Shown here one piece after another: positions 992 to 51,722 of a stretch of DNA of 64,000 nucleotides; position 1 is the stretch's first letter, and every line of letters starts with the position of its first letter. The stretch is from Clostridiales bacterium. GTDB taxonomy: Bacteria; Bacillota; Clostridia; Oscillospirales; Oscillospiraceae. Position numbers and translations under genes: made by a program. The notes below the pieces were generated by a model that ran no database searches, was not told the origin of the DNA, and saw only the letters and a list, made by a program, of their open reading frames with translations. The stretch covers positions 7,438-71,437 of the forward strand of contig DYCR01000003.1 in NCBI GenBank assembly GCA_019418025.1, read 5' to 3'.

Positions 992-1237
992 TTGAAACCA
1001 AGGAAACTAGAGCTTGGCAATCGGAACCTAATTGGTGCCCGCGTTACCGAAGCCAGAAAAAGTCATGGAATGAAACAAGTAGAGCTACTTGCCAAATTGC
1101 AACTAGCCGGGGTGGATTTAAGCGTTCCTGCACTTTCGCTGCTAGAAGGTCAAAAACGTCCGGTATCTGATATTGAATTAAATGCCCTAGCAGACATCTT
1201 GAATGTGTCTGTGGACTGGTTATTGGGCAGAAAGTAA
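992..1237 (+). CDS. Small XRE/Cro-CI-type HTH regulator
   Basis: ORF 983..1237. AGGAGG at 978-983 favours the in-frame TTG at 992. Motif NLIGARVTEARKSHGMKQVELLAKLQLAGVDLSVPALSLLEGQKR is typical HTH_3. Divergent from the WYL gene. Confidence 0.75.
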   Translation: MKPRKLELGNRNLIGARVTEARKSHGMKQVELLAKLQLAGVDLSVPALSLLEGQKRPVSDIELNALADILNVSVDWLLGRK

Positions 1238-1351
1238 GAAAACATCCACCCTTAGATGAGCACAACAGCTCACACAGGAGTGGATGTTTTTCGTTGACGA
1301 TACTGACTGCTCTTTGGCTGAAATAGGCAAGCCAAATGCAGCGGACTTTTA

Positions 1352-2845
1352 TCACTTCAAATATAACGGATTGGTCTGGTAGGTCTGTTTCGGACTTCTT
1401 GGATGATTGGGAATCGATAAGAGAATGACATTCTTCTTCACCAAGGGATCAATATAGCGTTTGATCGCATACTGCACACTGGCGATCTGAAGATAATCGC
1501 TGACTTCCTTGCGTGTTCTGGGAACTGCACAGAATTCTAACAAGCCCTTATCATCATTGACATTTTGCATCGATACGGATGTTACCTCTGTCATCGGTGC
1601 AATCTTCTGGGCACTGCGGTCGTTATAAAGGCACACAGAAAATTCTCCCCGCAAATCATTAAATACAGGTTCCGGAAGATCGAGGTCCCACATTGCACGA
1701 CGAATGCGAGGAATACCAGAATAACGATTCTCCGTTTGACCCAATGCTTCCATTGTTGTCACAAGAACAGGATTTCGGGTATCAGGTTGAATTTTTCCCA
1801 GTTGATCCAGCGTCAGACGACCATACAAACCACCTGGATTGTGAATTTCCAAACGGTCAGAAAACATGATGATCTGAATCGGCATATTCTCTGTGTGCGG
1901 GCTGTAATCCCTGTGGACCAATGCATTCAGAACAGACTCACGAACAGCGTCCAGTGGGTATTCGGGGATATCCCTGCGAACACCTGTGGAAGGGTCAATA
2001 CGCAGTGCTGTGCGCATATTTATTCTGACAAATCCGACGGCAGTCTCCAACATTTCTTGCAGTGTTCCCTCAATCCGTTTGCTGTCAGAGAAACGCTGTC
2101 CTGCATCGTCCAGCGTTCCCATCTCCGTTCCCGGCACACTTGAGGCAATAATACTCAGCTGTGGAAAATACGCCTGGGGATATGGGCAGAAAAGCAGCAC
2201 CGCCGAAAGCGTAACTTTACCTTCTCTCGTGATACCGGTTAACTCATATAACTGCTCCAACGGCAGTGCCGCCAAATTGGGACGATCCAGCTTGCGTTTC
2301 AGAAGGTATTGTTCCAGCTTGATCTGATCCAAGCCGATGATTGATACCCCATCAACCGGACGAATATCGTCCCTCGTCTTTTTGCGGTAAGCCTCATAGC
2401 TGTACACTTCATATTCCGTCATCGGCTTGTCTGCATCCCCAACCCGAATATAAGCGCCTTTCAGCCGTCCCTTTGCTTCCTTAAAACAGGGACGCTCGGT
2501 GAGGTCCACAGGCGGGATCTCCGCTATAACAAAGACTTTCCCATCCACATCAAACACACTGAGGATTGGATGTACCTTTGGGGACATAGACTCCCCTACT
2601 TCCATCAGCTTTTTTTGAAGATCCTGAGCATCATAGATACCAACCTTCTGAAAATTCTGCTTTTCATCAATTCCAAAGACGATAATCCCGCCCTCGTCCT
2701 GATTGGAAAAAGAAGAGAAGGTGTCATAGAGCCTTTCCGGACAGCCTTTGGCTGCCGCTTTGATTTCCAGTGTCTGTTCTTCACATCTTCGTGTTTCAAT
2801 TCGCTCTAATAATTTAGCAAACTCCTCATACAACATAAAACTCAC
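1352..2845 (-). CDS. AlbA_2 (Schlafen-like) DNA-binding domain + HATPase_c_4-like domain + C-terminal wHTH protein (COG2865 type, often mislabelled RecG-like)
   Basis: 497-aa ORF. N-terminus E..TLEIKAAAKG...EGGIIVFGIDE, central ...RESVLNALVHRDYS...IQIIMFSDRLEIHNPGGL... matches my memory of this family. AT-rich codon usage unlike the rest of the window. Confidence 0.6.
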   Translation of the reverse strand: MSFMLYEEFAKLLERIETRRCEEQTLEIKAAAKGCPERLYDTFSSFSNQDEGGIIVFGIDEKQNFQKVGIYDAQDLQKKLMEVGESMSPKVHPILSVFDVDGKVFVIAEIPPVDLTERPCFKEAKGRLKGAYIRVGDADKPMTEYEVYSYEAYRKKTRDDIRPVDGVSIIGLDQIKLEQYLLKRKLDRPNLAALPLEQLYELTGITREGKVTLSAVLLFCPYPQAYFPQLSIIASSVPGTEMGTLDDAGQRFSDSKRIEGTLQEMLETAVGFVRINMRTALRIDPSTGVRRDIPEYPLDAVRESVLNALVHRDYSPHTENMPIQIIMFSDRLEIHNPGGLYGRLTLDQLGKIQPDTRNPVLVTTMEALGQTENRYSGIPRIRRAMWDLDLPEPVFNDLRGEFSVCLYNDRSAQKIAPMTEVTSVSMQNVNDDKGLLEFCAVPRTRKEVSDYLQIASVQYAIKRYIDPLVKKNVILLSIPNHPRSPKQTYQTNPLYLK

Positions 2846-2997
2846 CTCTTCTAGATCAACTATATCACAACAACATAAGAAAGTAAATCAATAAGTAAAC
2901 AATTTTATTTATGTTGTTTTCTTATTTTCACTATAACATAACAAACAAGAGAAAAAAAGTGAAATGAAGAACACGACATCTGATCTCCTATCCCCTG

Positions 2998-3255
2998 CTA
3001 AATGGTAACGGTGGCTATGTACCGAATATCCATTTCATGGCTGACAGCAGTACGGTTGTTTCTGGTAAATATCATATTTCGTATGGGTTTCATCTTCTTG
3101 ACCATCTGGCCGCCGACGGAGCCGGCCTCACGGGAGGTCAGGTGACCGTTGTAGCCGTTGCTCAGGTTCACGCCGACCTCGCTTGCTGCCTGCATCTTGA
3201 ACTTGTCCATTGCGTCTCTTGCTTCGGGAATGTTGATCTGATTGTTGCTCTTCAT
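2998..3255 (-). CDS. alpha/beta-type small acid-soluble spore protein
   Basis: Internal ATG at 3255 preceded by AGGAGAG. MKSNNQINIPEARDAMDKFKMQAASEVGVNLSNGYNGHLTSREAGSVGGQMVKKM carries the SASP signature. C-terminal tail is longer than usual. Confidence 0.75.
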   Translation of the reverse strand: MKSNNQINIPEARDAMDKFKMQAASEVGVNLSNGYNGHLTSREAGSVGGQMVKKMKPIRNMIFTRNNRTAVSHEMDIRYIATVTI

Positions 3256-3444
3256 AATGTTTCTCTCCTTTTCACATCTCTCGGGAAGAAACCGTTTCCC
3301 GAGAGAAACAATTTCTTTCCGTACTCCTATCTTAACCCATATTCGGGTGCATATTCTGTGTAAAAATTCCCATTTCTGCATATGGATGGCATTTCATCAG
3401 GCTTTGCTTCCTTCTGTTTATCATGATCTGCCATTTGAAAAATT

Positions 3445-3924: not shown

Positions 3925-4044
3925 AGGAATTACCCCCTTTTTCCGCCAGTATATCACCGCCGGATGGGTAAAACTGTGACATCATCACAAAAGCCCAGAA
4001 GGGCAGAAAAAATCGCCCACCCCTGCGCAAGCAGGAGCGGGTGA

Positions 4045-4245
4045 CCGAGACTGCCCCAAACCCCTTTCAGGGCTTTCGGGCAATTTTTACAGCCTGACCC
4101 GCGCATAATTTCTCCGTCTATGACGGAGAAATTCCACACTCTCAGGCTGAGCAGTATGTTCCCCGAGGTACACGCCCCCGTGGAACATAATTTCTATCTT
4201 TTTGCCGCTGAGGCGGCAAACTCTGTGAGACTATTTGATACGCTG
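4045..4245 (-). repeat. ~200-bp interspersed structured element, copy 1 (diverged flanking direct repeats 4011-4044 / 4246-4280)
   Basis: Aligns end to end with the cores at 11386-11584, 14834-15036, 22247-22446 and 30865-31068. Flanked by two imperfect copies of the hairpin AATCGCCCACCCCTGC-loop-GCAGGxxCGGGxGA. Confidence 0.85.
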
Positions 4246-4326
4246 AATCGCCCACCCCTGCATAAGCAGGGACGGGCGATCTTTCGAAACACAATGAACA
4301 AATACGGAGATAATGGCGTTTGAAAA

Positions 4327-5382: not shown

Positions 5383-6009
5383 TTAGCCGAAAGCAGCCTG
5401 ACGGGCCTCGGCACACAGTGCAGTAATTTTCTCGAAATTGCCGGCTGCGATATCCGCCTTGGGGCAGACCCAGCTGCCGCCGACTGCATGGATGAAGGGA
5501 GCATCGATATACTCTCTGACATTGGCTGCATTGACGCCGCCGGTGGGCATGAACTTGATGCCCACAAAGGGAGCAGACAGGTTCTTCATGGCGTTCAGGC
5601 CGCCGTAGACATTTGCGGGGAAGAACTTGATGACCTTCAGACCCATGTTGACTGCTGCGGTGATCTCGGTGGGAGTCACGCAGCCGGGGGTCACGGCAAC
5701 ACCGTTTTCGATGCACCATGCCACGACCTCTGCGTCAAAGCCGGGAGAAACGATGAACTTTGCGCCCATGGAGACAGCCAGCTTGCACTGCTCCAGATTC
5801 AGGATGGTGCCGGCGCCCACCAGCATATCGGGGCAGTTTTCGGCAACAGCCTTGATGGAATCGGCAGCAGCTGCGGTGCGGAAGGTGATCTCCATAACGT
5901 CGATGCCGCCTGCAACCATCGCATTGGCGGTGGGCACTGCGTCCTTTGCATCGTCAAGAACAACAACAGGAACGACGCCTGCCTTTGCCAGTCTATTCAG
6001 AACATCCAT
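5383..6009 (-). CDS. eda: KDPG / 4-hydroxy-2-oxoglutarate aldolase
   Basis: 208 aa. VVPVVVLDD...EITFRT...GAGTILN...FMPTGGV motifs. AGGAGG RBS. Confidence 0.9.
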   Translation of the reverse strand: MDVLNRLAKAGVVPVVVLDDAKDAVPTANAMVAGGIDVMEITFRTAAAADSIKAVAENCPDMLVGAGTILNLEQCKLAVSMGAKFIVSPGFDAEVVAWCIENGVAVTPGCVTPTEITAAVNMGLKVIKFFPANVYGGLNAMKNLSAPFVGIKFMPTGGVNAANVREYIDAPFIHAVGGSWVCPKADIAAGNFEKITALCAEARQAAFG

Positions 6010-6021
6010 GTGAGCTCCTCC

Positions 6022-6867
6022 TTACACGCCGGAGTATGCAGCGAAGCCGCAGTCGATGGGCAGGCAGACACCGGTGATGGCGGAAGCGGACTTGTCGTCG
6101 CACAGGAACAGGGTTGCGCCCAGCAGCTCATCAGCCTCAACAAAGCGGCCGGTGGGGGTGCCGTTCAGGATCTTAGCGGAACGAGCGGTGGGGGTGCCAT
6201 CCTCGTTGAACAGCAGCTTTCTGTTCTGGTCGGAAACCAGGAAGCCGGGAGCGATCGCATTGCAGCGGATGTTGGTGCCGGCAAAATGGGTGGACAGCCA
6301 CTGAGTGAAGTTGGAGATAGCGGACTTTGCAGCGGAGTAAGCGGGGATCTTGGTCAGGGGGGTGTATGCATTCATGGAAGAGATGTTCAGAATGCAGCCG
6401 TGCTTCTTGTCAGCCATGTCCTTAGCAAAGGCCTGAGTGGGCAGCAGGGTACCCTGGAAGTTCAGCTTAAAGACAAAATCAACGCCGGATGCGTCCAGAT
6501 CAAAGAAGGTCTTGTCGCCCTCCTTGGCCTCATGATGGTACTCGTTGTCGGTGGTAGCACGGGGGTTGTTGCCGCCTGCACCGTTGACGAGGATGTCGCA
6601 GGGACCCAGATCCTTCAGGACAGCCTGATGGACCTCTTCCAGAGCCTCGGCTTCCAGAACGTTTGCCTTGTAGCCCTCGCAGATGAAGCCTTCAGCCTTG
6701 ATCTCCTCAGCCAGCTTCTTAACAGCCTCTTCGTTCAGGTCCAGAGCAGCGACCTTTGCACCGCTCTGTGCAAAAGCACGAGCCATTGCGCCGCAGATCA
6801 GTCCGCCTGCGCCGGTAACAACAACGACCTTACCGGAAAAATCAATGTCCAAGGGAAGATTAATCAT
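6022..6867 (-). CDS. SDR-family oxidoreductase, most likely D-mannonate (fructuronate) oxidoreductase of the YjmF/UxuB-SDR type
   Basis: TGAGGLICG Rossmann motif and YSAAK catalytic motif. Sits between uxuA and eda. Confidence 0.65.
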   Translation of the reverse strand: MINLPLDIDFSGKVVVVTGAGGLICGAMARAFAQSGAKVAALDLNEEAVKKLAEEIKAEGFICEGYKANVLEAEALEEVHQAVLKDLGPCDILVNGAGGNNPRATTDNEYHHEAKEGDKTFFDLDASGVDFVFKLNFQGTLLPTQAFAKDMADKKHGCILNISSMNAYTPLTKIPAYSAAKSAISNFTQWLSTHFAGTNIRCNAIAPGFLVSDQNRKLLFNEDGTPTARSAKILNGTPTGRFVEADELLGATLFLCDDKSASAITGVCLPIDCGFAAYSGV

Positions 6868-6921
6868 GATAATTTTGCCTCCAAATAAAATATTGTCGAA
6901 AAAGAAATGTGAATGAAAAAA

Positions 6922-8013
6922 TCAGATCTTGCCGTCCAGACGGTCCAGCATGTCCCATACGCCCAGCATATACATAATGCCAAGAGCGCGGTCGTACAGG
7001 CCGTAGCCGGGACGGACGGTGCCGGGGCCCTCGCCCCACAGGTGGCGGCCGTGGTCAGGACGGATATATCCCTCGTAACCGCAGTCGTGGTAAGCCTTCA
7101 GGATCTCCAGAATGCCGGTGTCGCCGTCGCAGTCCCGGTGGCTTGCCTCGGAGAAGTCTCCGTTTTCAAAATGCTTGACGTTGCGGATGTGGGCAAAGGC
7201 AATGCGGTCGCAGTGCTTGCGGACGATGTCGGCAACGTGGTTGTTGGGATCGGCGTTCAAAGAGCCGGAGCAGAGTGTCAGGCAGTTGTACTCGTCATCG
7301 ACCATCTTCAGGAACCGGTCAATGTTCTCTGCATTGGTCAGCAGACGGGGCAGGCCGAAGATATCCCAGGGGGGATCGTCCATGTGGATGGCCATTTTGA
7401 TGTCGCACTCCCGGCAGGTGGGCATGATTGCCTCGAGGAAGTACTTGAGGTTGGCCCACAGCTTCTCGTGGTCAACGTCTGCGTATGCCTTGAACAGCTC
7501 ATCAAGCTTTGCCATACGCTCAGGCTCCCATCCGGGGAAGGACATGTCATACTTCTCGGTGAAGCCCAGAATGTACTTTGCCATGGCATTGTAGTCATCC
7601 TGGATCATGTTCTTTTCATAGTAAAGTGCGGTGGAACCGTCGCCCACGGGGTGGAACAGGTTGGAGCGGGTCCAGTCAAAGATGGGCATGAAGTTGTAGC
7701 AGATGACCTTGACACCGAACTTGGACAGGTTGCGGATGGTCTGCTTGTAGTTCTCGATATACTGGTCGCGGGTGGGCAGACCGATCTTGATGTCGTCGTG
7801 GACATTGACAGACTCGACAACGTCCATGTTGAAGCCGTACTCGTCGAGCTGCTTTTTGACCTCAGCGATCTCTTCTACTTCCCAGATCTCGCCGGGCATT
7901 TTATGGTGCAATGCCCAGACAATGCTGGTAACACCGGGAATCTGCTTAATGTCGGACAGCTTGATGTTATCGTTGCCTTCGCCGTACCAACGGAAACCCA
8001 TTTGCATTGGCAT
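6922..8013 (-). CDS. uxuA: Mannonate dehydratase
   Basis: 363 aa. MPMQMGFRWYGEGND...IKQIPGV... is characteristic of the UxuA N-terminus. AGGAGG 7 nt before the ATG at 8013. Confidence 0.9.
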   Translation of the reverse strand: MPMQMGFRWYGEGNDNIKLSDIKQIPGVTSIVWALHHKMPGEIWEVEEIAEVKKQLDEYGFNMDVVESVNVHDDIKIGLPTRDQYIENYKQTIRNLSKFGVKVICYNFMPIFDWTRSNLFHPVGDGSTALYYEKNMIQDDYNAMAKYILGFTEKYDMSFPGWEPERMAKLDELFKAYADVDHEKLWANLKYFLEAIMPTCRECDIKMAIHMDDPPWDIFGLPRLLTNAENIDRFLKMVDDEYNCLTLCSGSLNADPNNHVADIVRKHCDRIAFAHIRNVKHFENGDFSEASHRDCDGDTGILEILKAYHDCGYEGYIRPDHGRHLWGEGPGTVRPGYGLYDRALGIMYMLGVWDMLDRLDGKI

Positions 8014-8050
8014 AAATGATCCTCCTAAATTTATAGTGTCTATTTATCAA

Positions 8051-9448
8051 TTACAGATTGAAATAGCGCTTTGCGTTGTTTGCGCAGATATCCTCCACCA
8101 GAGAACCCAAAAATTCCATGTCGGCAGGATATTCGCCGTTTTCCACCCAAGTACCGATGAGGTTGCAGAGGATTCTGCGGAAGTACTCGTGGCGGGCGTA
8201 GCTCAGCAGGCTGCGGGAATCGGTGAGCATACCGATGAAGTTGCCCAAAATTCCCAGATTGGCCAGACTGGTCATCTGATTCTGCATGCCGGTCTTGTTG
8301 TCATTGAACCACCATGCCGAGCCGTGCTGAATCTTACCGGGGACCTCGCTGCTCTGGAAGGCACCCAGCAGGGTGTCAAGCCACTGATCGTCTGCCGGAT
8401 TTAGGCTGTACAGCACGGTCTTGGGCAGGCTGTTGTCCTTCTCCAGTGCATCCATCAGGGCATACAGCGCAGCGCAGCTGTCGGTTACGGCGATGCAGTC
8501 AAAGCCGCTGTCGGCACCCAGAGCCGCAAAAGCCTTGGAATTGGGGTTTCTCATGCAGCTGAAGTGGATCTGCATGACCCAGCCCAGACGGGCGTATTCC
8601 TTGGCGCAATGCACCAGCAGATAGGTCTGGTATGCTTCGATCTCGAACTTGGTCAGCTTCTCTCCGGCCAGTGCCTTCCGGAAGGCAGACTCGATCTCCT
8701 CGGCAGATGCCTCCTGATAGATGACATAGTCAAGACCGTGGTCGGCTGCACGGCAGTTCATGGTGTCGAAGAACTCGATTCTGGCCGTCAGTGCCTTTGC
8801 CACGTCTGCTGCGGAGCGGATCTCCATTTTTGCAGCCTCGGAAAGCTTGCGGATGTATGCGGCAAAGCCTGCCTTATGCAGGTTCAGCGCAGGGTCCGGA
8901 CGGAAGCTGGGGCAGACCTTGGTGGCAAAGTCGGTCTGCGCGATGAGCTTGTGGTATTGCAGATCGCTGCAGGGATCGTCGGTGGTGCCGACCATCGCAA
9001 CGTTGCTCTTTGTGATCAGGCCTCTTGCGCTGAAGCTGGGGTCAGCCAGCTTCTCCAGAGCCAGATCCCACACCTGCTGTGCGGTCTGTCCGTTCAGCAC
9101 ACCCTCATAGCCGAAGTAATTCTTCAGCTCCAGATGGCACCAGTGGTACATGGGGTTACCGATGGCTCTGGGTAAAGCTTCTGCAAATTTCTGGAATTTA
9201 TCCCGATCGGATGCAGAACCTGTGATATATTCCTCTGAAACGCCGTTGGAGCGCATAATGCGCCACTTGTAATGGTCACCGCCCAGCCAAATCTGGGTGA
9301 TATTCTCGAATCGACGGTCCTCGTAAATGTCCTTGGGGTCGATGTGGCAGTGATAATCGTAAATCGGCATACGTGCCGCATGCTCATGATAGAGCTTGAC
9401 GGCAGTGGGATTGCTCAACAAAAAGTCCCTGCTCAGAAAAGGTGTCAT
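8051..9448 (-). CDS. uxaC: Glucuronate isomerase
   Basis: 465 aa. ...MPIYDYHCHIDPKDI...GDHYKWR...GNPMYHWCHLEL... is a classic UxaC signature. Confidence 0.92.
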   Translation of the reverse strand: MTPFLSRDFLLSNPTAVKLYHEHAARMPIYDYHCHIDPKDIYEDRRFENITQIWLGGDHYKWRIMRSNGVSEEYITGSASDRDKFQKFAEALPRAIGNPMYHWCHLELKNYFGYEGVLNGQTAQQVWDLALEKLADPSFSARGLITKSNVAMVGTTDDPCSDLQYHKLIAQTDFATKVCPSFRPDPALNLHKAGFAAYIRKLSEAAKMEIRSAADVAKALTARIEFFDTMNCRAADHGLDYVIYQEASAEEIESAFRKALAGEKLTKFEIEAYQTYLLVHCAKEYARLGWVMQIHFSCMRNPNSKAFAALGADSGFDCIAVTDSCAALYALMDALEKDNSLPKTVLYSLNPADDQWLDTLLGAFQSSEVPGKIQHGSAWWFNDNKTGMQNQMTSLANLGILGNFIGMLTDSRSLLSYARHEYFRRILCNLIGTWVENGEYPADMEFLGSLVEDICANNAKRYFNL

Positions 9449-11322: not shown

Positions 11323-11385
11323 GGCGAAGCTTCCCGAAGTGGCTTCGGGAAGTCTAAAAAAAGACCACCGCTTTTGCGGTGGTCT

Positions 11386-11584
11386 GAGACTGCCCGAAAA
11401 CCCTCTTAGGGCTTTCGGGCAATTTTTACAACCTGATCCGCGCATAATTTGTCCGTCATTGACGGACAAATTCCACACTCTCAGGCTGATATGTATTTTC
11501 CCCGAGGTACACGCCCCCGGGGAAAATGATTTAATCTTTTTTGCCGCTCAAGCGGCAAACGCGGGCAGACTGTTTGACAGGCTG
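11386..11584 (-). repeat. ~200-bp interspersed structured element, copy 2 (perfect 27-bp flanking direct repeats 11359-11385 / 11585-11611)
   Basis: Core alignment with the other copies. Both flanks read AAAAGACCACCGCTTTTGCGGTGGTCT, the terminator hairpin of the hydrolase gene. Confidence 0.9.
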
Positions 11585-11617
11585 AAAAGACCACCGCTTT
11601 TGCGGTGGTCTTTTCTG

Positions 11618-13966: not shown

Positions 13967-14821
13967 ATGAATTACCAAATCGAACCCCTTGATTTCGACC
14001 ATCCCTCCCAAAAAAGGATCGCAACCGGCGAAAGCTACGGCATTTTACTGGTGATCAAAGGCATCGCCCGGGTGGGCAAACGGTGGAAGGTCGGCACCGA
14101 CGACCTGCTGGTGTGCAAGCCCAAGCAGGTGCTGATGCTGGAGCAGACCAGCGAACGCTTCCCCCTCAGCGCCCTGTGGGTGCAGATCTCCGAGAAGGTG
14201 ATGCGCGTCTGCTCCACCCCGAAAACCGACATCATCGAAAGCTTCAATATCAATCCCGAGCCCGTGGCCCGCATTCGGGGCCAGAGCGAGATCCTCTCCC
14301 TCATCAAAAGCCTTGCTTCCCAGATGGCCCACATGCAGCAGCAGGAGCAGCGGCAGCGGTACGGGGCAGATCTTCTGGAGGAAAGCTCCGTCAAGATGTT
14401 TCTGGCACTGGTCATTCGGGCCTGCATCCTGTCAGACCTGCATCTGGTGCAGCGCAGCGGTCATCTCGCCATCGACGAGGTGTTCCGCTATATCCACTCC
14501 CACCTGACCGAGGAGCTGACTCTGGAGCATTTGGAGCAGGAATTTTTCGTCAGCCGCCACCATTTGATCCGCCTGTTCAAGCGCCGCTGCGGTCTGACCA
14601 TCCATCAGTACATTATAAAAGCACGTCTGGATCTGTGCCGCACCTATATCGAGCAGGGATATTCCATCACAGAGGTCTACCGCAAGGGCGGTTTCGGCGG
14701 ATACAACCACTTTTTCCGAGCATTTAAGCAGGAATACGGCATGACCCCCAAGGAATACTACCGCAGCATCTACCCAACCCCGACAGCGCCGCCCGAAGCA
14801 AACCGCCCGACTGCCGAGTAA
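13967..14821 (+). CDS. AraC-family regulator
   Basis: C-terminal HTH_18 (...HQYIIKARLDLCRTYIEQGYSITEVYRKGGFGGYNHFFRAFKQEYGMTPKEY). Divergent from the GPH-esterase pair. The stop codon lies inside the duplicated hairpin of repeat copy 3. Confidence 0.85.
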   Translation: MNYQIEPLDFDHPSQKRIATGESYGILLVIKGIARVGKRWKVGTDDLLVCKPKQVLMLEQTSERFPLSALWVQISEKVMRVCSTPKTDIIESFNINPEPVARIRGQSEILSLIKSLASQMAHMQQQEQRQRYGADLLEESSVKMFLALVIRACILSDLHLVQRSGHLAIDEVFRYIHSHLTEELTLEHLEQEFFVSRHHLIRLFKRRCGLTIHQYIIKARLDLCRTYIEQGYSITEVYRKGGFGGYNHFFRAFKQEYGMTPKEYYRSIYPTPTAPPEANRPTAE

Positions 14822-14833
14822 CGGCAATCGGGC

Positions 14834-15036
14834 AAACAGCGTATCAATTGGTCTCACAGAGTTTGCCGCCTTGGCGGCAAAAAAGATAAAATCATGTTCC
14901 GCGGGGGCGTGTACCTCGGGGAACATACTGCTCAGCCTGAGAGTGTGGAATCCGTCCGTCTCCGGCGGACGGATTATGCGCATGTCAGGCTGCAAAAATT
15001 GCCCGAAAGCCCCGGAAGGGGGGTTCGGGCAGACTG
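14834..15036 (+). repeat. ~200-bp interspersed structured element, copy 3 (perfect 32-bp flanking direct repeats 14802-14833 / 15037-15068)
   Basis: Both flanks read ACCGCCCGACTGCCGAGTAACGGCAATCGGGC. The left copy encodes the AraC C-terminus ...RPTAE plus its stop. Confidence 0.9.
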
Positions 15037-15094
15037 ACCGCCCGACTGCCGAGTAACGGCAATCGGGCGGTTTCGCTTTATTTTGCAGGAGAGA

Positions 15095-15970
15095 TTATGT
15101 ATTATTCAGCTGTAAAGAAAAATAACGTTTTGGGGAAACGGTCATTTTTTCCTTGAACACCTTAGAAAAATGCTGCTGACTGCTGAAGCCCACGTCCAGA
15201 GACAGCTTCGTCAGGGGGTAGTTCGGATTGGAATACATAAAGTCGATGGCCTTGCTCACCCGCACATGGGCAATGTAGGCAGAGACACCCATGTCAAAAT
15301 TCTCGTGGAACAGCTTGGTCAGGTATCGGGTGGAAATGCCTGCGGCATCCGCCACCTCCTGCACGCTCAGCTTTTTCATATAGTTCTCGTTGATGAACAC
15401 CGACGCATTGATCAGATAGCGGTTCTGGTGGATGGAGCCCATGGTCCGGTCCGCGATGATCTCACGGGACAGCAGGATAGACAGCTGGGACACATACAGC
15501 TGGATCATGGTGTGGCTGTCGGACGACTCCCCCCGGACCTCCTCATAGATCCCCCGCATGCAGGCCTCCAGCTGGGGGTGGCAAATGCCCTTCATGTATT
15601 TGCGCCGACCCATGGAAAGCTCAAAGGCAAAGGCAGATTCATCCGAAAGAAGGTGTCCGCTCATGCCGCCGGTATCCAGATGGTTGTGGAAGTGGATCTG
15701 GATGAAGCTGCACTCCTCAGGACTTGTGATGCGGATGGAATGGGGCACATCCGGAAAATAGACGAAATACTCCCCCGGCTTCACCACCACCTCACTGCCC
15801 AGAATGGTCACCGTCACATCGCCGGTGAGGCAGGTGAACAGCTCGATGGTGTGATGCAGATGGGTGGGGAAGTGATAACCTGACGGCAGGCACTGGATCA
15901 CCGCATTGTCCACTGACAGATGTGCTGAATTATATAATTGTGAACTTGTGGTCCGTGACACGCTGATCAT
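15095..15970 (-). CDS. AraC-family regulator (cupin + HTH), probable regulator of the LNB/GNB module
   Basis: ATG at 15970 behind GGAGAAAGG. C-terminus ...AYIAHVRVSKAIDFMY...VGFSSQQHFSKVFKEKMTVSPKRY. Divergent from the ABC operon. Confidence 0.85.
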   Translation of the reverse strand: MISVSRTTSSQLYNSAHLSVDNAVIQCLPSGYHFPTHLHHTIELFTCLTGDVTVTILGSEVVVKPGEYFVYFPDVPHSIRITSPEECSFIQIHFHNHLDTGGMSGHLLSDESAFAFELSMGRRKYMKGICHPQLEACMRGIYEEVRGESSDSHTMIQLYVSQLSILLSREIIADRTMGSIHQNRYLINASVFINENYMKKLSVQEVADAAGISTRYLTKLFHENFDMGVSAYIAHVRVSKAIDFMYSNPNYPLTKLSLDVGFSSQQHFSKVFKEKMTVSPKRYFSLQLNNT

Positions 15971-17874: not shown

Positions 17875-18016
17875 TCTGAATACTGTTTTCTATGATTCCG
17901 GCAGTGGCCTCGGCTGCTGTCGGAATTTTAGGGAATGGGGGCCGGCCCGGCAAGCGGTGCCTCCCCTGTCCAACCATCCACCCATCCTGTTATTTTTTGA
18001 AAGGAGCGGCATTCAT

Positions 18017-18901
18017 ATGAAAAAGAGCATCGGGCGCAGCGGATTTATCACGTTATGCGTCGCTCCTGCGGTGATCCTGTTCACTGTATTTATGATCCTG
18101 CCTACATTAAATGTTTTCCGCATGTCCCTGTTCCAGAGGGGCGCTTACTCCCCCAACGAAACCTTTATCGGTCTGCAAAACTTCTCCATGCTGCTGAAGG
18201 ATGCCCAGTTCATCCGATCCATGCAGAACACCATCATGCTGGTTGTTGTGGTCACCGTGATCACATTTGGTTTTGCGGTGCTGTTCGCCGCAATTTTGAC
18301 TCGTGAAAATATCAAGGGTCAGGGTTTTTTCCGGATCGTGTTCTACATCCCCAATATCCTGTCCATTGTTGTCATTTCCGGTATCTTCTCCGCCATCTAC
18401 AAGCCCGAAAACGGCATGCTCAACAGCATCATCGGCCTGTTCACCGACATGACCGACCCCATCTTGTGGAAGGGTGAGAAGCTGGTCATGGTCAGTATCA
18501 TCATCGCAATGATCTGGCAGGCCATCGGCTATTACATGGTCATGTACATGGCCTCTATGTCCAGTGTCCCCCAGAGCCTGTACGAAAGCGCAGGTCTGGA
18601 CGGCGCAAGCCGCGTGACCCAGTTCTTCCAGATCACCATTCCCCTGATCTGGACCAATATCCGCACGACCCTGACATTCTTCATCATCTCCACCATCAAC
18701 ATGGCCTTCCTGTTTGTCAAGGCGATGACCGCAGGCGGCCCCAACGGTGCCTCCGAGGTGGCACTGGGCTATATGTACGGTCAGAAGGATGCCGGTCTTT
18801 ACGGCTACTCCATGGCAATCGGCGTGGTGATCTTCCTGTTCTCCTTTGCGCTTTCTGCACTGGTCAACAAGGCCACCAAGCGTGAAGTGCTGGAATTCTA
18901 A
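18017..18901 (+). CDS. ABC sugar permease (MalF-like)
   Basis: ATG at 18017 behind GGAG. Multi-TM. EAA-like SLYESAGLDGASRVTQFFQITIPL. Confidence 0.85.
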   Translation: MKKSIGRSGFITLCVAPAVILFTVFMILPTLNVFRMSLFQRGAYSPNETFIGLQNFSMLLKDAQFIRSMQNTIMLVVVVTVITFGFAVLFAAILTRENIKGQGFFRIVFYIPNILSIVVISGIFSAIYKPENGMLNSIIGLFTDMTDPILWKGEKLVMVSIIIAMIWQAIGYYMVMYMASMSSVPQSLYESAGLDGASRVTQFFQITIPLIWTNIRTTLTFFIISTINMAFLFVKAMTAGGPNGASEVALGYMYGQKDAGLYGYSMAIGVVIFLFSFALSALVNKATKREVLEF

Positions 18902-18913
18902 GGAGATTGCATT

Positions 18914-19801
18914 ATGAATAACAACAAAACTTATTCCGGGGATAAGCTCTACAAGTTCTTTATCTATCTGGTCCTGATCCTTCTGGCTGTGTCCATCCTC
19001 GTGCCTGTGGCATGGGTGTTCATGGCATCGGTAAAGGAAAACACCGAATTTTACGGCAACCCCTGGACCCTGCCTGCCTCCTTTCATTGGCAGAACTTCG
19101 CAGAGGCATGGAACACCGCGAAAATGGGCGAGTACATGCTCAACTCCGTCTACGTCACCGCACTGGCTCTGGCGATCCTGCTGGTGGTGGCACTGCCTGC
19201 CTCCTACTGCCTGTCCCGTTTCAAGTTCCGGGGGGCCAAGTTCCTCAACGGCGCATTCATGGCAGGCCTGTTCATCAACGTCAACTACATCGTCGTCCCC
19301 ATCTTCCTGATGCTGCGGGACGGAGATGTGTGGGTAAAAAAGATGTTCGGCACCGCCTTCCTGCAAAACAACCTGACGATCCTCGCGCTTGTTTATGCAT
19401 CCACGGCCCTGCCCTTCACCATTTATCTGCTCAGCGGCTACTTCGCCACCCTGCCCCACGATTTTGAAGAGGCCGCCTACATCGACGGTGCAGGCTACCA
19501 CAAGACCATGCTGCAAATCATTTTCCCCATGGCAAAGCCCTCCATCGTCACGGTCATTTTGTTCAACTTCCTGTCGTTCTGGAATGAGTACATCATCTCC
19601 ATGACCCTGATGAATTCTGCAAAGGCCGCCAAGACCCTGCCGGTGGGCCTGCTGAATCTGATGCAGGCACAGCAGTCTGCTGCAAACTACGGCCCCATGT
19701 ATGCCGGTCTGGTCCTTGTCATGCTGCCCACGCTGATCCTCTATATCTGCGTGCAGAAAAATCTGACCAAGGGCATGACCGTCGGCGGTCTGAAAGGTTA
19801 A
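18914..19801 (+). CDS. ABC sugar permease (MalG-like)
   Basis: 295 aa. EEAAYIDGAGYHKTMLQIIFPMAKP EAA loop. Confidence 0.85.
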   Translation: MNNNKTYSGDKLYKFFIYLVLILLAVSILVPVAWVFMASVKENTEFYGNPWTLPASFHWQNFAEAWNTAKMGEYMLNSVYVTALALAILLVVALPASYCLSRFKFRGAKFLNGAFMAGLFINVNYIVVPIFLMLRDGDVWVKKMFGTAFLQNNLTILALVYASTALPFTIYLLSGYFATLPHDFEEAAYIDGAGYHKTMLQIIFPMAKPSIVTVILFNFLSFWNEYIISMTLMNSAKAAKTLPVGLLNLMQAQQSAANYGPMYAGLVLVMLPTLILYICVQKNLTKGMTVGGLKG

Positions 19802-19810
19802 GGTGATCCC

Positions 19811-19999
19811 ATGCAACAGTTTTTGAAAGAACATACCGCGCTGCGCATCACATTGATCGCGCTGACCTTTGTTCTGGGCATGTTTCTGGTCTTTAAGGGC
19901 TGGAAAATGACCGGACAGCTCAACGGACTTCTGATCATGCTGGGCGGCGTCGCATCTTTGGTGCTTTCCCTCTACATTTACAACAAGCCTTTTCAATAA
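19811..19999 (+). CDS. 62-aa two-TM membrane protein encoded inside the ABC/GH112 operon
   Basis: Starts 9 nt after the permease stop. Two hydrophobic helices (LRITLIALTFVLGMFLVF, LLIMLGGVASLVLSLYIY). No family recognised. Confidence 0.5.
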   Translation: MQQFLKEHTALRITLIALTFVLGMFLVFKGWKMTGQLNGLLIMLGGVASLVLSLYIYNKPFQ

Positions 20000-20029
20000 C
20001 GAAATCCAACGTAAGCAAGGAGAATACTT

Positions 20030-22192
20030 ATGAGCAACAAGAAAATGGGCCGGGTGACCATCCCCACGGATCTGGATGTGGTCCCCGAAACACTGGAAAT
20101 CATGAAGCGCTGGGGCGCAGATGCCATCCGTGACTGCGACGGCACCGACTTCCCTGCCGAGCTGCAAAATCAGGATGCAAAGATCTACTCCACCTACTAC
20201 ACCACCCGCAAGGACAACGCATGGGCAAAGGCCAACCCCGACGAGGTCCAGCAGTGCTACATCATGACCGGATTCCACACCGCCACCGGCGACAGCCTGC
20301 GGATCAAGCTGATGCAGGGCATCTCCCCCGAGCTGATAGAGGTCAACACCCGTGACGATATCAAGCGTTGGTGGGAGGTCATGGACCGCACCACCGGCGA
20401 GCCTGTCAGCACCGACAAGTGGCACTATGATGCGCAGGACGGCTGCGTGGTTCTGGAGCAGCCCGATGCCTTCCACGAGTACACGGTGGCATTCCTTGCC
20501 TACCTGATCTGGGACCCTGTCCACATGTACAATGCCGTCACCAACAACTGGCAGAACTTCGAGCATCAGATCACCTTTGACGTCCGCCAGCCCAAGACCC
20601 ACAAGTTCACCATGGAGCGTCTGCGCAAGTTCATCGCAGAGCATCCCTATGTCAATGTCATCCGCTACACCACCTTCTTCCATCAGTTCACCCTGATGTT
20701 TGACGAGCTGAAGCGTGAGAAATTCGTGGACTGGTACGGCTATTCTGCCTCTGTTTCCCCCTATATTCTGGAGCAGTTTGAGCAGGAGGTCGGCTACAAG
20801 TTCCGTCCTGAGTTCATCGTGGATCAGGGCTACTACAACAACCAGTACCGGGTCCCCACCAAGGAGTTCAAGGACTTCCAGGCCTTCCAGAGAAGAGAAG
20901 TGGCAAAGCTTGCCAAGGAAATGGTGGACATCACCCACGAGCTGGGCAAGGAAGCCATGATGTTCCTGGGCGACCACTGGATTGGCATGGAGCCGTTCAT
21001 GGAGGAGTGGAAGGGCATCGGCATGGATGCCGTGGTCGGCTCCGTGGGCAACGGCAGCACCCTGCGCCTGATCTCCGACATCCCCGGCGTCAAGTACACC
21101 GAGGGACGGTTCCTGCCCTACTTCTTCCCCGACACCTTCCACGAGGGCGGCGACCCCGTCAAGGAAGCCAAGGAGAACTGGGTCACGGCTCGCCGGGCCA
21201 TCCTGCGCAAGCCCATCGACCGCATCGGCTACGGCGGCTACCTGAAGCTGGCTCTGGAATTCCCCGACTTCATCGACTACATCGAGTCCGTCTGCAACGA
21301 GTTCCGTGAGCTGTACGAAAACATCAAGGGCACCACCCCCTACTGCGTCAAGACCGTTGCCGTGCTGAACAGCTGGGGCAAAATGCGGGCTTGGGGCTGC
21401 CACATGGTCCACCACGCCCTGTACCAGAAGCAGAACTACTCCTACGCAGGCGTCATCGAGGCCCTGTCCGGCGCACCCTTCGATGTGAAGTTCATCTCCT
21501 TCGACGATATCCGGAAGGACCCCAAGATCCTCGATGCCATCGATGTCATCATCAACGTCGGTGACGGCGACACCGCCCACACCGGCGGCGCAGAGTGGGA
21601 AGATCCCGCCATCTCCACCGCCATCCGCGGCTTCGTCCACAACGGCGGCGGCTTCATCGGCGTGGGCGAGCCCACCGGCCACCAGTATCAGGGCCATTAC
21701 CTGCAGCTGAGCAATGTTCTGGGCGTTGAGAAGGAGACCGGCTTCACCCTGAACTACGACAAGTACAACTGGACCGAGCAGGGCGGCCACTTCATTCTGG
21801 CCGATGCCAAGCAGGGTGTCGATTTCGGCGAGGGCATGAAGAACATCTATGCGCTGCCCGATGCACAGATCCTGTGCCAGAAGGACAAGGAAGTCCAGAT
21901 GGCTGTCAACAGCTTCGGCGACGGCCGCAGCGTCTACATCTCCGGCCTGCCCTACTCCTTCGCAAACAGCCGTGTGCTGTACCGTGCGATCCTGTGGGCC
22001 GCTCACGGCGAGGAGGAGCTGAACAAGTGGTTCTCCACCAACTACAACGTGGAGGTACACGCATTCGTGAAAAACGGCAAGTACTGTGTGGTCAACAACA
22101 CCTACGAGCCCCAGTCCACCACCGTTTACACCGACAAGGGTTCCTTCCAGCTGGATCTTGCCGCAAACGAGATCAAGTGGTACGAGATCTGA
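20030..22192 (+). CDS. lnpA: 1,3-beta-galactosyl-N-acetylhexosamine (lacto-N-biose/galacto-N-biose) phosphorylase, GH112
   Basis: 720 aa. The N-terminus ...GRVTIPTDLDVVPETLEIMKRWGADAIRDCDGTDFP... parallels the Bifidobacterium LNBP N-terminus (...WGADAIRNSDGT...) as I recall it. Confidence 0.85.
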   Translation: MSNKKMGRVTIPTDLDVVPETLEIMKRWGADAIRDCDGTDFPAELQNQDAKIYSTYYTTRKDNAWAKANPDEVQQCYIMTGFHTATGDSLRIKLMQGISPELIEVNTRDDIKRWWEVMDRTTGEPVSTDKWHYDAQDGCVVLEQPDAFHEYTVAFLAYLIWDPVHMYNAVTNNWQNFEHQITFDVRQPKTHKFTMERLRKFIAEHPYVNVIRYTTFFHQFTLMFDELKREKFVDWYGYSASVSPYILEQFEQEVGYKFRPEFIVDQGYYNNQYRVPTKEFKDFQAFQRREVAKLAKEMVDITHELGKEAMMFLGDHWIGMEPFMEEWKGIGMDAVVGSVGNGSTLRLISDIPGVKYTEGRFLPYFFPDTFHEGGDPVKEAKENWVTARRAILRKPIDRIGYGGYLKLALEFPDFIDYIESVCNEFRELYENIKGTTPYCVKTVAVLNSWGKMRAWGCHMVHHALYQKQNYSYAGVIEALSGAPFDVKFISFDDIRKDPKILDAIDVIINVGDGDTAHTGGAEWEDPAISTAIRGFVHNGGGFIGVGEPTGHQYQGHYLQLSNVLGVEKETGFTLNYDKYNWTEQGGHFILADAKQGVDFGEGMKNIYALPDAQILCQKDKEVQMAVNSFGDGRSVYISGLPYSFANSRVLYRAILWAAHGEEELNKWFSTNYNVEVHAFVKNGKYCVVNNTYEPQSTTVYTDKGSFQLDLAANEIKWYEI

Positions 22193-22216
22193 TTGGCAAA
22201 ACATCATAAGAAACAA

Positions 22217-22247
22217 ACACCGCCCTGTATTGCACAGGGCGGTGTTT
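22217..22247 (+). terminator. Terminator-like hairpin after the GH112 gene
   Basis: ACACCGCCCTGT-ATTG-CACAGGGCGGTGT followed only by TT before repeat copy 4 begins. Confidence 0.5.
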
Positions 22248-22446
22248 CAGTGTGTCAAAAAGTCTCACAGAGTTTGCCGCTTGAGCGGCAAAAAAGACCA
22301 AATCATTTTCCACGGGGGCGTGTACCTCGGGGAAAATACATATCAGCCTGAGAGTGTGGAATTTGTCCGTCATTGACGGACAAATTATGCGCGGGTCAGG
22401 CTGCAAAAATGCCCGAAAACCCTAAGAGGGTTTTCGGGCAGACTGA
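22247..22446 (+). repeat. ~200-bp interspersed structured element, copy 4 (no flanking duplication; sits between two different convergent terminator hairpins)
   Basis: H1 22273-22292, H2 22304-22337, CAGCCTGA 22344-22351 pairing with TCAGGCTG 22396-22403, H3 22361-22387, H4 22411-22439. Confidence 0.9.
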
Positions 22447-22496
22447 AAGCCGGACAGCATGCATCATGCTGTCCGGCTTTTGTTAGGAAGGCTTGA

Positions 22497-24290: not shown

Positions 24291-24535
24291 TGATAAGCCT
24301 CCTAAATTCATTGGTAGAGCATGTAATTTCGAATGCTGAACTTATACTAGCATAGATAGGGTCAGTTTTCAACTGTGATTCCATACAAATATATCGATAC
24401 TAAAAGGCATTTTATATATGAAAATTGGGAAATATTGCACAATGTTTGAGCTATCTGTAAAATATCGAGAATTCTGTCGGGATTTGTTGACTTTTCCCCT
24501 GTAATGTGTTACGCTTTTGTTACAGATAAATAAAC

Positions 24536-24601
24536 GCTGATATAAATTTGGATATATGGCCCAAATGTTTCTACCGTACAGCCACAGGTACGACTATTAG
24601 C
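24536..24601 (+). promoter_or_regulatory. Purine riboswitch aptamer, guanine-type (C in J3/1)
   Basis: GCUGAUA-UAAA-UUUGG-AUAUAUGG-CCCAAA-UGUUUCUAC-CGUAC-AGCCACAG-GUACG-AC-UAUUAGC. This parallels B. subtilis xpt (..AUAUAAU..GGAUAUGG..GUUUCUACC..GACUAU..). P1 is 7 bp. Confidence 0.8.
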
Positions 24602-24607
24602 AGATTT

Positions 24608-24645
24608 GACACGTTTTTCCGGAAAAGGTGTCGGATTTTCTATTT
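24608..24645 (+). terminator. Candidate riboswitch expression-platform terminator
   Basis: GACACGTTTT-TCCGG-AAAAGGTGTC followed by GGATTTTCTATTT. Confidence 0.5.
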
Positions 24646-29762: not shown

Positions 29763-29794
29763 CTGCCCGAAAGCCAAATGGTGCTTTCGGGCAG
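29763..29794 (+). repeat. Solo H4-like hairpin related to the right end of the ~200-bp element
   Basis: CTGCCCGAAAGC-CAAATGGT-GCTTTCGGGCAG, followed by AACGA and a host terminator (29803-29837). Same junction architecture as the full copies. Confidence 0.55.
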
Positions 29795-29835
29795 AACGAC
29801 ACGAGCAGCGTAACATCGGTTACGCTGCTCATTTT

Positions 29836-30699
29836 TTATCTTCTGTAAATGACGGCCATCATATCGGGGCCGGTGTTGATGGAGATGATATTGCCCACAG
29901 GATAGCTCAGCATAGGGGGCTGATCCAGCTCCGCCTCGCAGGCCTCCTTCAGCTTTTCGTAGATCTCCGGATTGTTTCCGTAGACCAGACAGTAAGGCGT
30001 ACCGGGCTTGCGCTCTTTCTTCACAATGTCCAGAAGGCCGCTGACCGCCCGCTTGTCTCCCCGGAACTTGGTCACCACCTTGGATGCGCCGTCCTCAAAG
30101 GTGATGGCAGGCTTCAGCCCCATGGCATCCCCCACAAAGGCCGCCGCCGCACTGACACGGCCGGATTTGCGGACGAACCGCAGGTTCATCGGCACAAACA
30201 TGCCCCGTCCATGCTCCACCCCGTGGGTGATGGTCTCGATGACCGCCTGAGGCTCCGCCCCATCCTTTGCAAGCTTCGCCCCCTCCAGAACCGCCATGCC
30301 GTAGACCATGGAATAGGTCTTGGAGTCGATGATGTGGATGGTCAGCTGTCCTGCCGCTTCGGGATGCTCTTCAAAGAACAGGTCTCTGGTGATCACCGCC
30401 GCCTGATAGGTGCCGGAGCCCTTGGAGTTCAGCGCCGTATGGATCAGGTGGGTATAGCCCTCTTTCCATGTCTGCTCATAGAGCCGGGTGTAGCGCTCGG
30501 CGCTGACCTGACTGGTGGTGGGCAGCTCCTCACTGGTTTCCAGAAGGTCATAAAATTCATGGGGAGCCATGTCAATGCCGTCCAGATATTCGCTGTTTCC
30601 TGCATAAATGGTCAGGGGCAGGACGGCAATATTCAGCTCCTGCGCCAGTTCATGGGGAATATCGGAAGTAGAGTCTGTCGAGACTTTGATTTTATACAT
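29836..30699 (-). CDS. DegV-family fatty-acid-binding protein
   Basis: 287 aa. MYKIKVSTDSTSDIPHELAQELNIAVLPLTI... is a typical DegV N-terminus. Confidence 0.88.
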   Translation of the reverse strand: MYKIKVSTDSTSDIPHELAQELNIAVLPLTIYAGNSEYLDGIDMAPHEFYDLLETSEELPTTSQVSAERYTRLYEQTWKEGYTHLIHTALNSKGSGTYQAAVITRDLFFEEHPEAAGQLTIHIIDSKTYSMVYGMAVLEGAKLAKDGAEPQAVIETITHGVEHGRGMFVPMNLRFVRKSGRVSAAAAFVGDAMGLKPAITFEDGASKVVTKFRGDKRAVSGLLDIVKKERKPGTPYCLVYGNNPEIYEKLKEACEAELDQPPMLSYPVGNIISINTGPDMMAVIYRR

Positions 30700-30864
30700 A
30701 AATGCTTGAATCCTTTCTCAGGGGGGAGTATCCATGAGGCATAATATCCTGATGTGTATAGCATACTATGATAATATACCGAATTTCCCCCAAAAAATCA
30801 AGCCGTTTCCACCCATCTCCCGTCTCCGGCAGAAAAAAGCCGGTCACTGCTCAGGCAGCGACCG

Positions 30865-31068
30865 ACCGCAGCGTGTCAAGGAGCCTGCCAGAATGTTCCG
30901 CTTTTGCGGCAAAAAGATAGAAATCATGTTCCCCGGGGGCGTGTACCTCGGGGAACATACTGCTCAGCCTGAGAGTGTGGAATTTCCCCGTCAGTGACGG
31001 GGAAATTATGCGCGGGTCAGGCTGTAAAAATTGCCCGAAAGCCCTGAAAGGGGGTTTCGGGCAATATT
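30865..31068 (+). repeat. ~200-bp interspersed structured element, copy 5 (perfect 28-bp flanking direct repeats 30837-30864 / 31069-31096; variant left arm)
   Basis: Both flanks read AAGCCGGTCACTGCTCAGGCAGCGACCG, the nahK terminator hairpin. Core aligns with the other copies from H1 onward. Confidence 0.9.
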
Positions 31069-31108
31069 AAGCCGGTCACTGCTCAGGCAGCGACCGGCTG
31101 AAAGGGTC

Positions 31109-33584: not shown

Positions 33585-33627
33585 AAAAAATGCCCAAAAG
33601 CCCTTTTAGGGCTTTCGGGCAGACCGA
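33585..33627 (+). repeat. Solo right-end fragment of the ~200-bp element
   Basis: AAAAAATGCCCAAAAGCCCTTTTAGGGCTTTCGGGCAGACCGA matches the last ~43 nt of the full copies. Followed by the host hairpin AGCGGCAGTCAG..CTGACTGCCGCT (33628-33660). Confidence 0.6.
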
Positions 33628-33672
33628 AGCGGCAGTCAGACATTTGCCTGACTGCCGCTTGAGACGAATCGG

Positions 33673-51073: not shown

Positions 51074-51239
51074 TTCACACAAAAATCATCCCTCTTTTTT
51101 GTAAGGCCCTGCCGCAAATAGGCTTGACGCTTGAATATGCGTGGGGTAACATATAGGTAAGGAAAAGGATTTGCCCTCGCATACTGTCCACCTTCCGATC
51201 TGCGATCAAAAATCCACATGATGAAAGGATGAATCTGCG

Positions 51240-51671: not shown

Positions 51672-51722
51672 TCACGAGCCGTTCTCCCGTTTGCCGCAGC
51701 TGCGGCAGTCCATCAAAATTTT

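Follow-up and report, generated by a model that had tools for sequence, protein, structure and literature searches.

For the IS1182 family of insertion sequences, ISfinder reportedly lists direct repeats of 0–60 bp. Enzymes that transfer a 3′-OH strand end produce a duplication by attacking each strand at the 5′ border of what becomes the duplicated segment. CRISPR Cas1–Cas2 and casposons make such staggered attacks at the borders of a ∼30-bp, often palindromic sequence, which is then found duplicated around the insert. Bacterial class C group II introns home just past intrinsic-terminator hairpins, reading structure over sequence; they are ribozyme/reverse transcriptase (RT) retroelements of at least 0.7 kb and leave the hairpin unduplicated. 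IS1272 and TnSha1 target terminator hairpins without sequence specificity (Furi et al., 2016, PMC4923244). Attack at the 3′ foot has been proposed to explain the deletion of the stem-loop by IS1272, and a hypothetical pathway in which 3′ ends join the 5′ feet would duplicate the whole stem-loop (Wan et al., 2017, Fig. 13, pathway b; PMC5678879).

We analysed a 64,000-nucleotide stretch of DNA (the window) in which an AraC-family regulator gene (13967–14821, + strand; PF12833/PF00165) is followed by an insert between direct repeats. The window contains the 32-bp sequence ACCGCCCGACTGCCGAGTAACGGCAATCGGGC at exactly two places, 14802–14833 and 15037–15068, both on the + strand and with 0 mismatches; the number of such 32-mer pairs expected by chance, from 100 dinucleotide-preserving shuffles, was none. 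An earlier note on this DNA had described a perfect 32-bp repeat around a 203-nt core, with the left copy encoding the end of the AraC gene, and both the coordinates and the identity were borne out. The left copy indeed contains the last six codons of the gene (C-terminus ...NRPTAE) and its TAA stop (14819–14821). As a hairpin, the left copy lacks the last nucleotide of the 3′ arm. The right-hand hairpin (15037–15084, + strand) is intact and resembles an intrinsic terminator (fold −28.7 kcal/mol): the repeat is followed by GGT, which completes a 35–39-nt stem, and then by TTCGCTTTATTTT. Since the right copy continues with GGT to finish the stem, the duplication ends a few nucleotides before the 3′ foot. 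Three unmatched nucleotides (AAA, 14834–14836) lie between the left copy and the CAGCG end of the insert.

The 203 nt between the repeats (14834–15036, + strand; element proper 14837–15035, running from CAGCGTATCAA at the 5′ end to GGGCAGACT at the 3′ end) belong to a ∼200-bp repeat that is present five times in the window, with a pairwise identity of 82–90%. We refer to this copy as C and to its insertion point as site C. Copy A (4011–4279, − strand; element 4048–4245) lies downstream of a pfkB kinase gene between 34-bp flank repeats at 4246–4279 and 4011–4044, which agree at 29 of 34 positions. Copy B (11359–11611, − strand; element 11387–11584) lies downstream of a hydrolase gene between perfect 27-bp repeats at 11585–11611 and 11359–11385. 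Copy E (30837–31096, + strand; element 30869–31067) has perfect 28-bp repeats at 30837–30864 and 31069–31096 and is antisense to the APH-family gene (31109–32233, minus strand) whose terminator it occupies. Around A, B and E the repeats span a stem-loop in each case, and their sequences differ from copy to copy. The statement that the flanks of the other copies are stem-loops of 27–34 bp with differing sequences is therefore correct for these three copies and fails for copy D (22217–22481, + strand; element 22248–22444), where two unrelated hairpins are found at 22217–22245 and 22446–22481. All five copies are placed directly downstream of a stop codon, and their chromosomal surroundings are ordinary, with dnaK/dnaJ/hrcA, uxaC/uxuA, lacto-N-biose (LNB) phosphorylase, ABC transporter and AraC regulator genes as neighbours. 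The window also holds two remnants, both on the + strand. The first (29764–29836) consists of a P4-like hairpin (see below) and a GAACGAC resembling the 3′ terminus, adjoining a host terminator hairpin; the second (33591–33659) has the same architecture, with a P4-like hairpin, CAGACCGA and then the hairpin AGCGGCAGTCAG...CTGACTGCCGCT. The window copies differ by 10–18%, yet three of the four repeat pairs are perfect, which points to recent insertion of copies that came from diverged sources, and not to a single burst long ago.

We sampled the family with a 20-nt motif from the central core, GGGGCGTGTACCTCGGGGAA; because the motif is subfamily-specific, the family is under-sampled. The scan gave 31 loci, seven of them in genomes (uncultured Oscillospiraceae MAGs) and 24 in gut-type metagenomes; viral contigs gave 0 loci with this motif. 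Across the window, the MAGs and the metagenomes, 15 of 23 complete copies have a hairpin-spanning direct repeat abutting both ends, with a different sequence in every case. The remaining eight are without a clean duplication. Copy D and locus L018 are flanked by two different hairpins, and at some copies (L002 and L007) there is only one. The cultured species Vescimonas fastidiosa (MM35) is rich in a more distant subfamily (18 matches in 240 kb), whose members are 70–77% identical and differ in the P2 hairpin. V. fastidiosa and one fecal contig, annotated as a putative 'bacteriophage', contributed five further copies with duplicated hairpins; the duplicated hairpin around one copy on the fecal contig is 34 bp long. 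Vescimonas copies with intact ends have duplications of 25–40 bp, and in those with degraded ends the duplication is lost.

Two syntenic loci, in MAG039 (L035) and in GCA_029258595.1 (L037), contain AraC homologues that are 78–80% identical to the window protein (80% for L037). They share with the window the gene order HTH, hydrolase, MFS, AraC and convergent gene, with intergenic spaces of only 45–93 nt. Site B of L037 reads ...CATTCTTAACAGAAAAGACCACCGCAAAAGCGGTGGTCTTTTTTAGACTTCCCGAA...: the two flanks of copy B are joined by the same hairpin, present exactly once, and 120 of 130 nt are identical to the window after removal of the element and one repeat. At site C, the hairpin of L037 is single and orthologous (ACGCCCGA...TCGGGCGT), and the T-rich tract TTTCGTGTAATTTCGCAG comes next; the counterpart in the window is ACCGCCCGA...TCGGGCGGT and then TTCGCTTTATTTTGCAG. 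L035 carries single, unrelated hairpins at both sites. Exact-protein look-ups of the flanking genes returned only short Logan contigs (DRR171478, same strain), which break inside the repeat, and no empty site. Because L037 carries the same loci empty, with one hairpin each, the 32-bp repeat at site C is a true target-site duplication; the hairpin is host DNA, single before insertion and double after it. This is what the earlier note had maintained, including its prediction that an empty locus in a relative would hold a single hairpin followed directly by the T-rich tract. It had also named two observations that would speak for the opposite, empty sites that already carry two hairpins and the same flank at unrelated loci. 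Neither L037 nor L035 is built in the first way, and the flank repeats differ in sequence at 19 of 19 sites. The copies with two different hairpins (D, L018) or with one (L002, L007) could be taken to mean that the repeated hairpins are part of the element itself, or that they arose by local tandem duplication or recombination instead of insertion. However, at the empty sites the flanks run on uninterrupted around a single hairpin, the 19 repeat pairs all differ, and the mixed flanks of copy D would be accounted for by the inversion breakpoint at which it lies when two related genomes are compared. We give this explanation next to no credence.

The breakpoint was located by comparison with L038, where the LNB phosphorylase gene (93% identical product) converges directly on an ABC operon, the same operon that is inverted in the window at 26.4–29.7 kb. 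Positions 1473–5664 of L038 align forward to 17999–22193 of the window and positions 5794–9163 align in reverse to 29746–26371; in L035, window position ∼14775 is joined to ∼29742. Copies C and D and the remnant at 29764–29836 lie at the breakpoints. Since D sits at an inversion breakpoint relative to both genomes, its mismatched hairpins would most simply be the result of rearrangement at element copies. The remnant is oriented as D, so that a simple inversion between these two does not fit as it stands. At L002, where the 5′ end is intact and the left hairpin missing, a TCAGC direct repeat is present and the hairpin could have been deleted by slippage.

The geometry of the duplication was determined at 19 independent sites, with the extent of each palindrome taken from an X-drop palindrome measure; two earlier automated measures were dropped as noisy (spurious outer pairs; A/T extensions). 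Such a tabulation of length and position relative to the stem had been proposed in the earlier note. The duplications are 21–40 bp long (mean 30.7, s.d. 4.4), no two have the same sequence, and six repeat pairs are perfect. All but one of them are centred on the dyad of the hairpin to within 2 nt (18 of 19). A tolerance of 1 nt puts both boundaries at the feet of the palindrome at five sites, a tolerance of 3 nt at 13 and one of 5 nt at 18 of the 19, which fits the earlier proposal of cuts on both sides of the hairpin. Longer palindromes tend to have longer duplications (r = 0.60, p = 0.0065), with a slope of 0.50 ± 0.16, not 1, and a permutation test on the mean |T−P| gave p = 0.004. The hairpin sets the position of both cuts and, in part, their spacing. 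Relative to the T tract of the terminator, the element is co-directional at ∼9 sites and clearly antisense at three (E, L015 and L023). At some junctions 0–4 unmatched nucleotides separate repeat and element (AAA at C, ACCG at E, CGG at A); simple gap repair does not predict them.

The scatter in these lengths bears on how the spacing is chosen. Short palindromes have duplications longer than themselves and long palindromes have shorter ones, so that the lengths cluster (30.7 ± 4.4 bp) and the slope against the palindrome is only 0.50. This would be expected of an integrase acting on duplex DNA as a protein ruler, a symmetric dimer or tetramer, possibly of the DDE type, that binds inverted half-sites and cuts ∼15 bp either side of the dyad with no cruciform involved. 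However, a range of 21–40 bp is much wider than known fixed-ruler transposases give, and at the five sites whose two boundaries coincide with the stem feet to within 1 nt, the palindromes themselves vary from 27 to 33 bp. The target arms, moreover, have no common sequence, leaving half-site recognition nothing to read. We consider such an enzyme unlikely as the full explanation; the pull towards ∼30 bp leaves room for a contribution by a protein ruler.

A Cas1/casposase-type integrase, duplicating the palindrome as in CRISPR spacer acquisition, had been offered in the earlier note as the closest analogy. It would account for a ∼30-bp palindromic sequence duplicated around an insert, and the polarity of Cas1–Cas2 and casposases, 3′-OH attack at the two 5′ borders, is the one that we propose below. 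Casposon duplications have a fixed length of 14–15 bp. The duplications described here follow the hairpin and range from 21 to 40 bp, the targets are scattered terminators of unrelated sequence, and the window proteins scanned include no cas1 gene and no CRISPR array was seen among them. We regard this origin as very improbable, and the hairpin targeting of IS1272/TnSha1 replaces it as the closer precedent.

The element has a short (∼200 bp) and a long (∼256 bp) form; the long form carries an additional hairpin module behind its 5′ end. In L003 and L030 the 5′-end sequence is tandemly repeated. Its ends are 5′ CAGCGTGTCAAAAAAG... and 3′ ...TTTTCGACAGTCT, a pair that can also be written CAGCGTGTCAAAAA...TTTTCGACAGTCT. 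The terminal inverted repeats (5′ cAGnnTGTCAAAAA versus 3′ TTTTCGACAGTCT) are imperfect, 14–17 bp long and weak, with ∼10–14 matches in 23; the 5′ end of L018, when reverse-complemented, matches the 3′ consensus. There is no conserved open reading frame, as the sole ATG-initiated frame of copy C reads ATT in B, D and the MAG copies. The element is thus small, multi-copy and non-coding, with terminal inverted repeats and a target-site duplication for which an empty site is at hand; judged by its sequence, it is a non-autonomous, MITE-like transposable element.

The core is predicted to fold into four hairpins, in copy C P1 (14862–14881), P2 (14894–14926), P3 (14933–14992) and P4 (15000–15031). 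Over 26 copies, 97.3% of the pair cells in P1–P4 hold standard pairs, compared with 36–51% when the partners are slid. Double compensatory changes occur at 21 of 54 pairs, compared with 7.3 ± 1.5 after column shuffles and 4–8 after sliding. The loop of P2 is identical in 26/26 copies, and many stem columns are variable. Three positions are invariant or nearly invariant G·U or U·G pairs, which places the fold on the sense strand of the element, as RNA or single-stranded DNA. Neither a gathering scan of the whole window nor a permissive scan (E ≤ 10) of 14780–15100 identified an Rfam family for the core; the permissive matches to Rfam 15 were at chance level (E 0.37–9.8) and far below gathering scores. 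The covarying core is a candidate new structured RNA. A consensus scan found a candidate promoter-like sequence, TTGCCG-18-TAAAAT (14863–14892, + strand), which overlaps P1 and whose −10 is poorly conserved among the copies. The P4 hairpin, read on the antisense strand, precedes a T-run and has a terminator-like score.

A sense-strand fold with invariant G·U pairs would suit an RNA-mediated retroelement, in which a sense transcript of the core is copied by target-primed reverse transcription at a nick by the hairpin and a second nick beyond it leads to the duplication. In the same direction, a few copies are 5′-truncated, the repeats of L011 abut the truncated end, and both remnants retain the 3′ end only. 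Against this, the element has terminal inverted repeats and no A/T tail, and the promoter-like site lies ∼60 nt inside it, so that a transcript would miss the 5′ end. The window contains no RT, and no Rfam intron or retron was matched. We hold a retroelement to be highly unlikely.

The explanation that we prefer, and to which we would assign a probability of about 0.6, is structure-directed transposition, in which the ends of the element join the 5′ feet of a palindrome, a transposase acts in trans and the whole hairpin becomes duplicated. It includes, with the same degree of confidence, that the targets are palindromes of the Rho-independent-terminator type that would be read by shape and not by sequence. 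The enzyme would most likely be a DDE transposase, its class and its supply in trans both being surmised. The palindrome would probably be extruded as a cruciform, which would bring its feet next to each other across a four-way junction, and the two 3′ ends of the element would be joined to opposite strands at these 5′ feet. Unfolding of the hairpins and filling of the two single-stranded gaps would then leave a whole stem-loop on each side. The upstream gene would retain its hairpin, the element would acquire an intact terminator downstream, and in the antisense orientation its own P4 hairpin and T-run could terminate the host transcript. With the upstream hairpin kept, a terminator gained and termination by P4 available when antisense, terminators may provide a safe landing site. 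Weak terminal inverted repeats, the slope of 0.50, the unmatched nucleotides at some junctions, the eight of 23 copies without a clean duplication and the negative search for a transposase described next count against the explanation as it stands.

The partner enzyme was sought in several ways. Among the 30 window proteins Pfam identified no transposase, integrase, Cas1 or RT. No longer relative with the ends of the element was present in the window, in ∼200 kb of element-bearing contigs or in the Vescimonas DNA, and a scan for pairs of termini spaced wider than in the MITE was negative. Other hairpin-bracketed inserts and multi-copy ORFs (all-against-all) yielded no partner enzyme in the element-bearing contigs, nor did 390 kb of annotated Vescimonas DNA, in which only a Tn916-like element and a prophage were seen. 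Alternatively, the element might be acted on by an as yet undescribed integrase that is specific for structure and resolves extruded terminator cruciforms as a junction resolvase would, with the core as an RNA or single-stranded DNA that aids its own mobilization; or the core might be a mobile small-RNA gene that acquires a terminator by duplicating that of the host. We think either variant rather improbable. Three further candidates were rejected: site-specific recombination between hairpins, which would create hybrids that are not hairpins; insertion into the loop, after which either side would have only half a palindrome; and integron attC-like cassettes, which involve no duplication.

Structure-directed transposition at the 5′ feet would give the outcome complementary to the stem-loop loss of IS1272, here represented by 19 natural examples and by sequence-verified empty sites. 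These would constitute natural evidence that a transposition machine can attack both 5′ feet of a palindrome. A 200-bp substrate with defined ends and many targets makes the cruciform-junction and protein-ruler models testable. Duplications of 21–40 bp are missed by MITE and IS finders that expect 2–14 bp. The elements produce paired terminators, 3′-UTR extensions and synteny breakpoints in gut Oscillospiraceae, which are abundant and poorly studied.

Compared with known systems, the element is closest to IS1272/TnSha1 of the IS1182 family in Staphylococcus, which likewise target stem-loops by structure, with no sequence consensus and in either orientation (PMC4923244, PMC5678879). Both have short terminal inverted repeats, those of IS1272 being 16 bp, and the tandemly duplicated left end of IS1272L recalls L003, L030 and the long form described here (PMC4923244, PMC5678879). 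IS1272, however, is a 1.9-kb autonomous IS of staphylococci with a 548-aa transposase, and it removes the stem-loop without a duplication. The present element has 200–256 bp, no ORF and no linked transposase that we could find, its hosts are Oscillospiraceae, and the stem-loop is kept and duplicated. Like the REP-targeting IS (IS1397/ISKpn1 and the IS110-family ISPpu9/ISPpu10) and ordinary MITEs, it inserts at extragenic palindromes, and it shares with them as a group the features of being small, non-coding, intergenic and multi-copy with stable stem-loops (PMC1525189, PMC10969869). Those elements use a specific repeated palindrome and duplicate 0 to a few bp, whereas here whole hairpins of unrelated sequence are duplicated. 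Unlike Cas1–Cas2 and casposons, which act at a leader-proximal repeat or a tRNA end, the element uses many unrelated terminators, its duplication varies with the hairpin, and the insert is a 200-bp element with terminal inverted repeats. It differs from class C group II introns in its length of 200 bp, in the duplication of the hairpin and in matching no Rfam intron domains. The searchable literature yielded no description of whole-terminator duplication by a MITE or an IS. What is new is the copying of the whole hairpin to both sides; terminator targeting with loss of the stem-loop is known already from IS1272. We read the family as a duplication-type counterpart of IS1272-like structure-directed transposition.

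The core of the element (14837-15035 in copy C) retains a four-hairpin fold across an alignment of 26 element copies, and the covariation is strong: double changes were seen at 21 of its 54 base pairs. On the sense strand the G.U pairs are invariant, and the loop of the second hairpin, P2 (GCGUGUAC), is the same in all 26 sequences. No Rfam family matched the core. We therefore consider this fold a candidate for a motif not yet described, in either structured RNA or single-stranded DNA.

The five copies in the window (A-E) differ from one another by 10-18%; despite this divergence, the flanking repeats are perfect pairs in three of four cases. Two remnants (29764-29836 and 33591-33659) comprise only the last ∼ 40 nt of the element, that is, a hairpin resembling P4 and the 3' terminus. 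Each adjoins a host hairpin; the same truncated architecture (element 3' end plus host hairpin) arose twice in the window. The five copies and the two remnants all fall between 4 and 34 kb in the 64-kb window, and the insertions are thus clustered. Relative to two related genomes (L038 and L035), the ∼ 7.5 kb between 22.2 and 29.75 kb is inverted; element copies C and D (D at 22248-22444) and the remnant at 29764-29836 lie at the breakpoints. The inverted segment carries a flavin reductase/rubredoxin-type gene, a purine riboswitch, Bmp and an ABC operon. The Bmp/PnrA-type ABC transporter operon is preceded by the riboswitch aptamer (24518-24616, plus strand; Rfam RF00167, 57.8 bits).

At 51059-52452 of the window a ∼ 720-bp unit containing small ORFs of ∼ 143 aa is duplicated in tandem with 84-95% identity, including a perfect stretch of 174 nt. 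The ORFs at 1044-3381, among them a 497-aa Schlafen AlbA_2/HATPase_c_4 protein and an alpha/beta-type SASP, have a low third-position GC content (0.39-0.59, compared with 0.7-0.8 elsewhere), and this region may have been acquired from another source.

Within a duplication, the left and right hairpins are not always identical. At loci L011 (3300-3560) and L044 (45363-45560) the loop is inverted between them (TC versus GA; TTCAAG versus TTGAAG), and at L008 a compensatory change at the base of the stem (G..C versus T..A) distinguishes the two. These differences resemble the products of secondary flipping or repair inside palindromes. A further copy of the element, with a 34-bp duplicated hairpin, is found at 6597-6797 of a fecal contig (MT836333.1) that is labelled 'UNVERIFIED Bacteriophage sp.' and may be bacterial DNA. 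Loci L040 and L042-L048 derive from pMM35_01 (NZ_AP023416.1), an 861-kb 'plasmid' of Vescimonas fastidiosa that encodes dnaA, dnaN, gyrA, gyrB and the operons for ribosomal proteins. Its behaviour is that of chromosomal DNA, not of a plasmid.

The element also occurs in a long form of ∼ 256 nt (L008, L010, L012, L014, L016, L018, L020 and L025), in which an additional hairpin module, AGCAGCTGTAAAGCGG...CCGCTGACAGCTG, is located 3' of the 5' end. In L003 and L030 the 5'-end sequence itself is repeated in tandem, an arrangement reminiscent of IS1272L, whose left end is duplicated in tandem (PMC4923244, PMC5678879).
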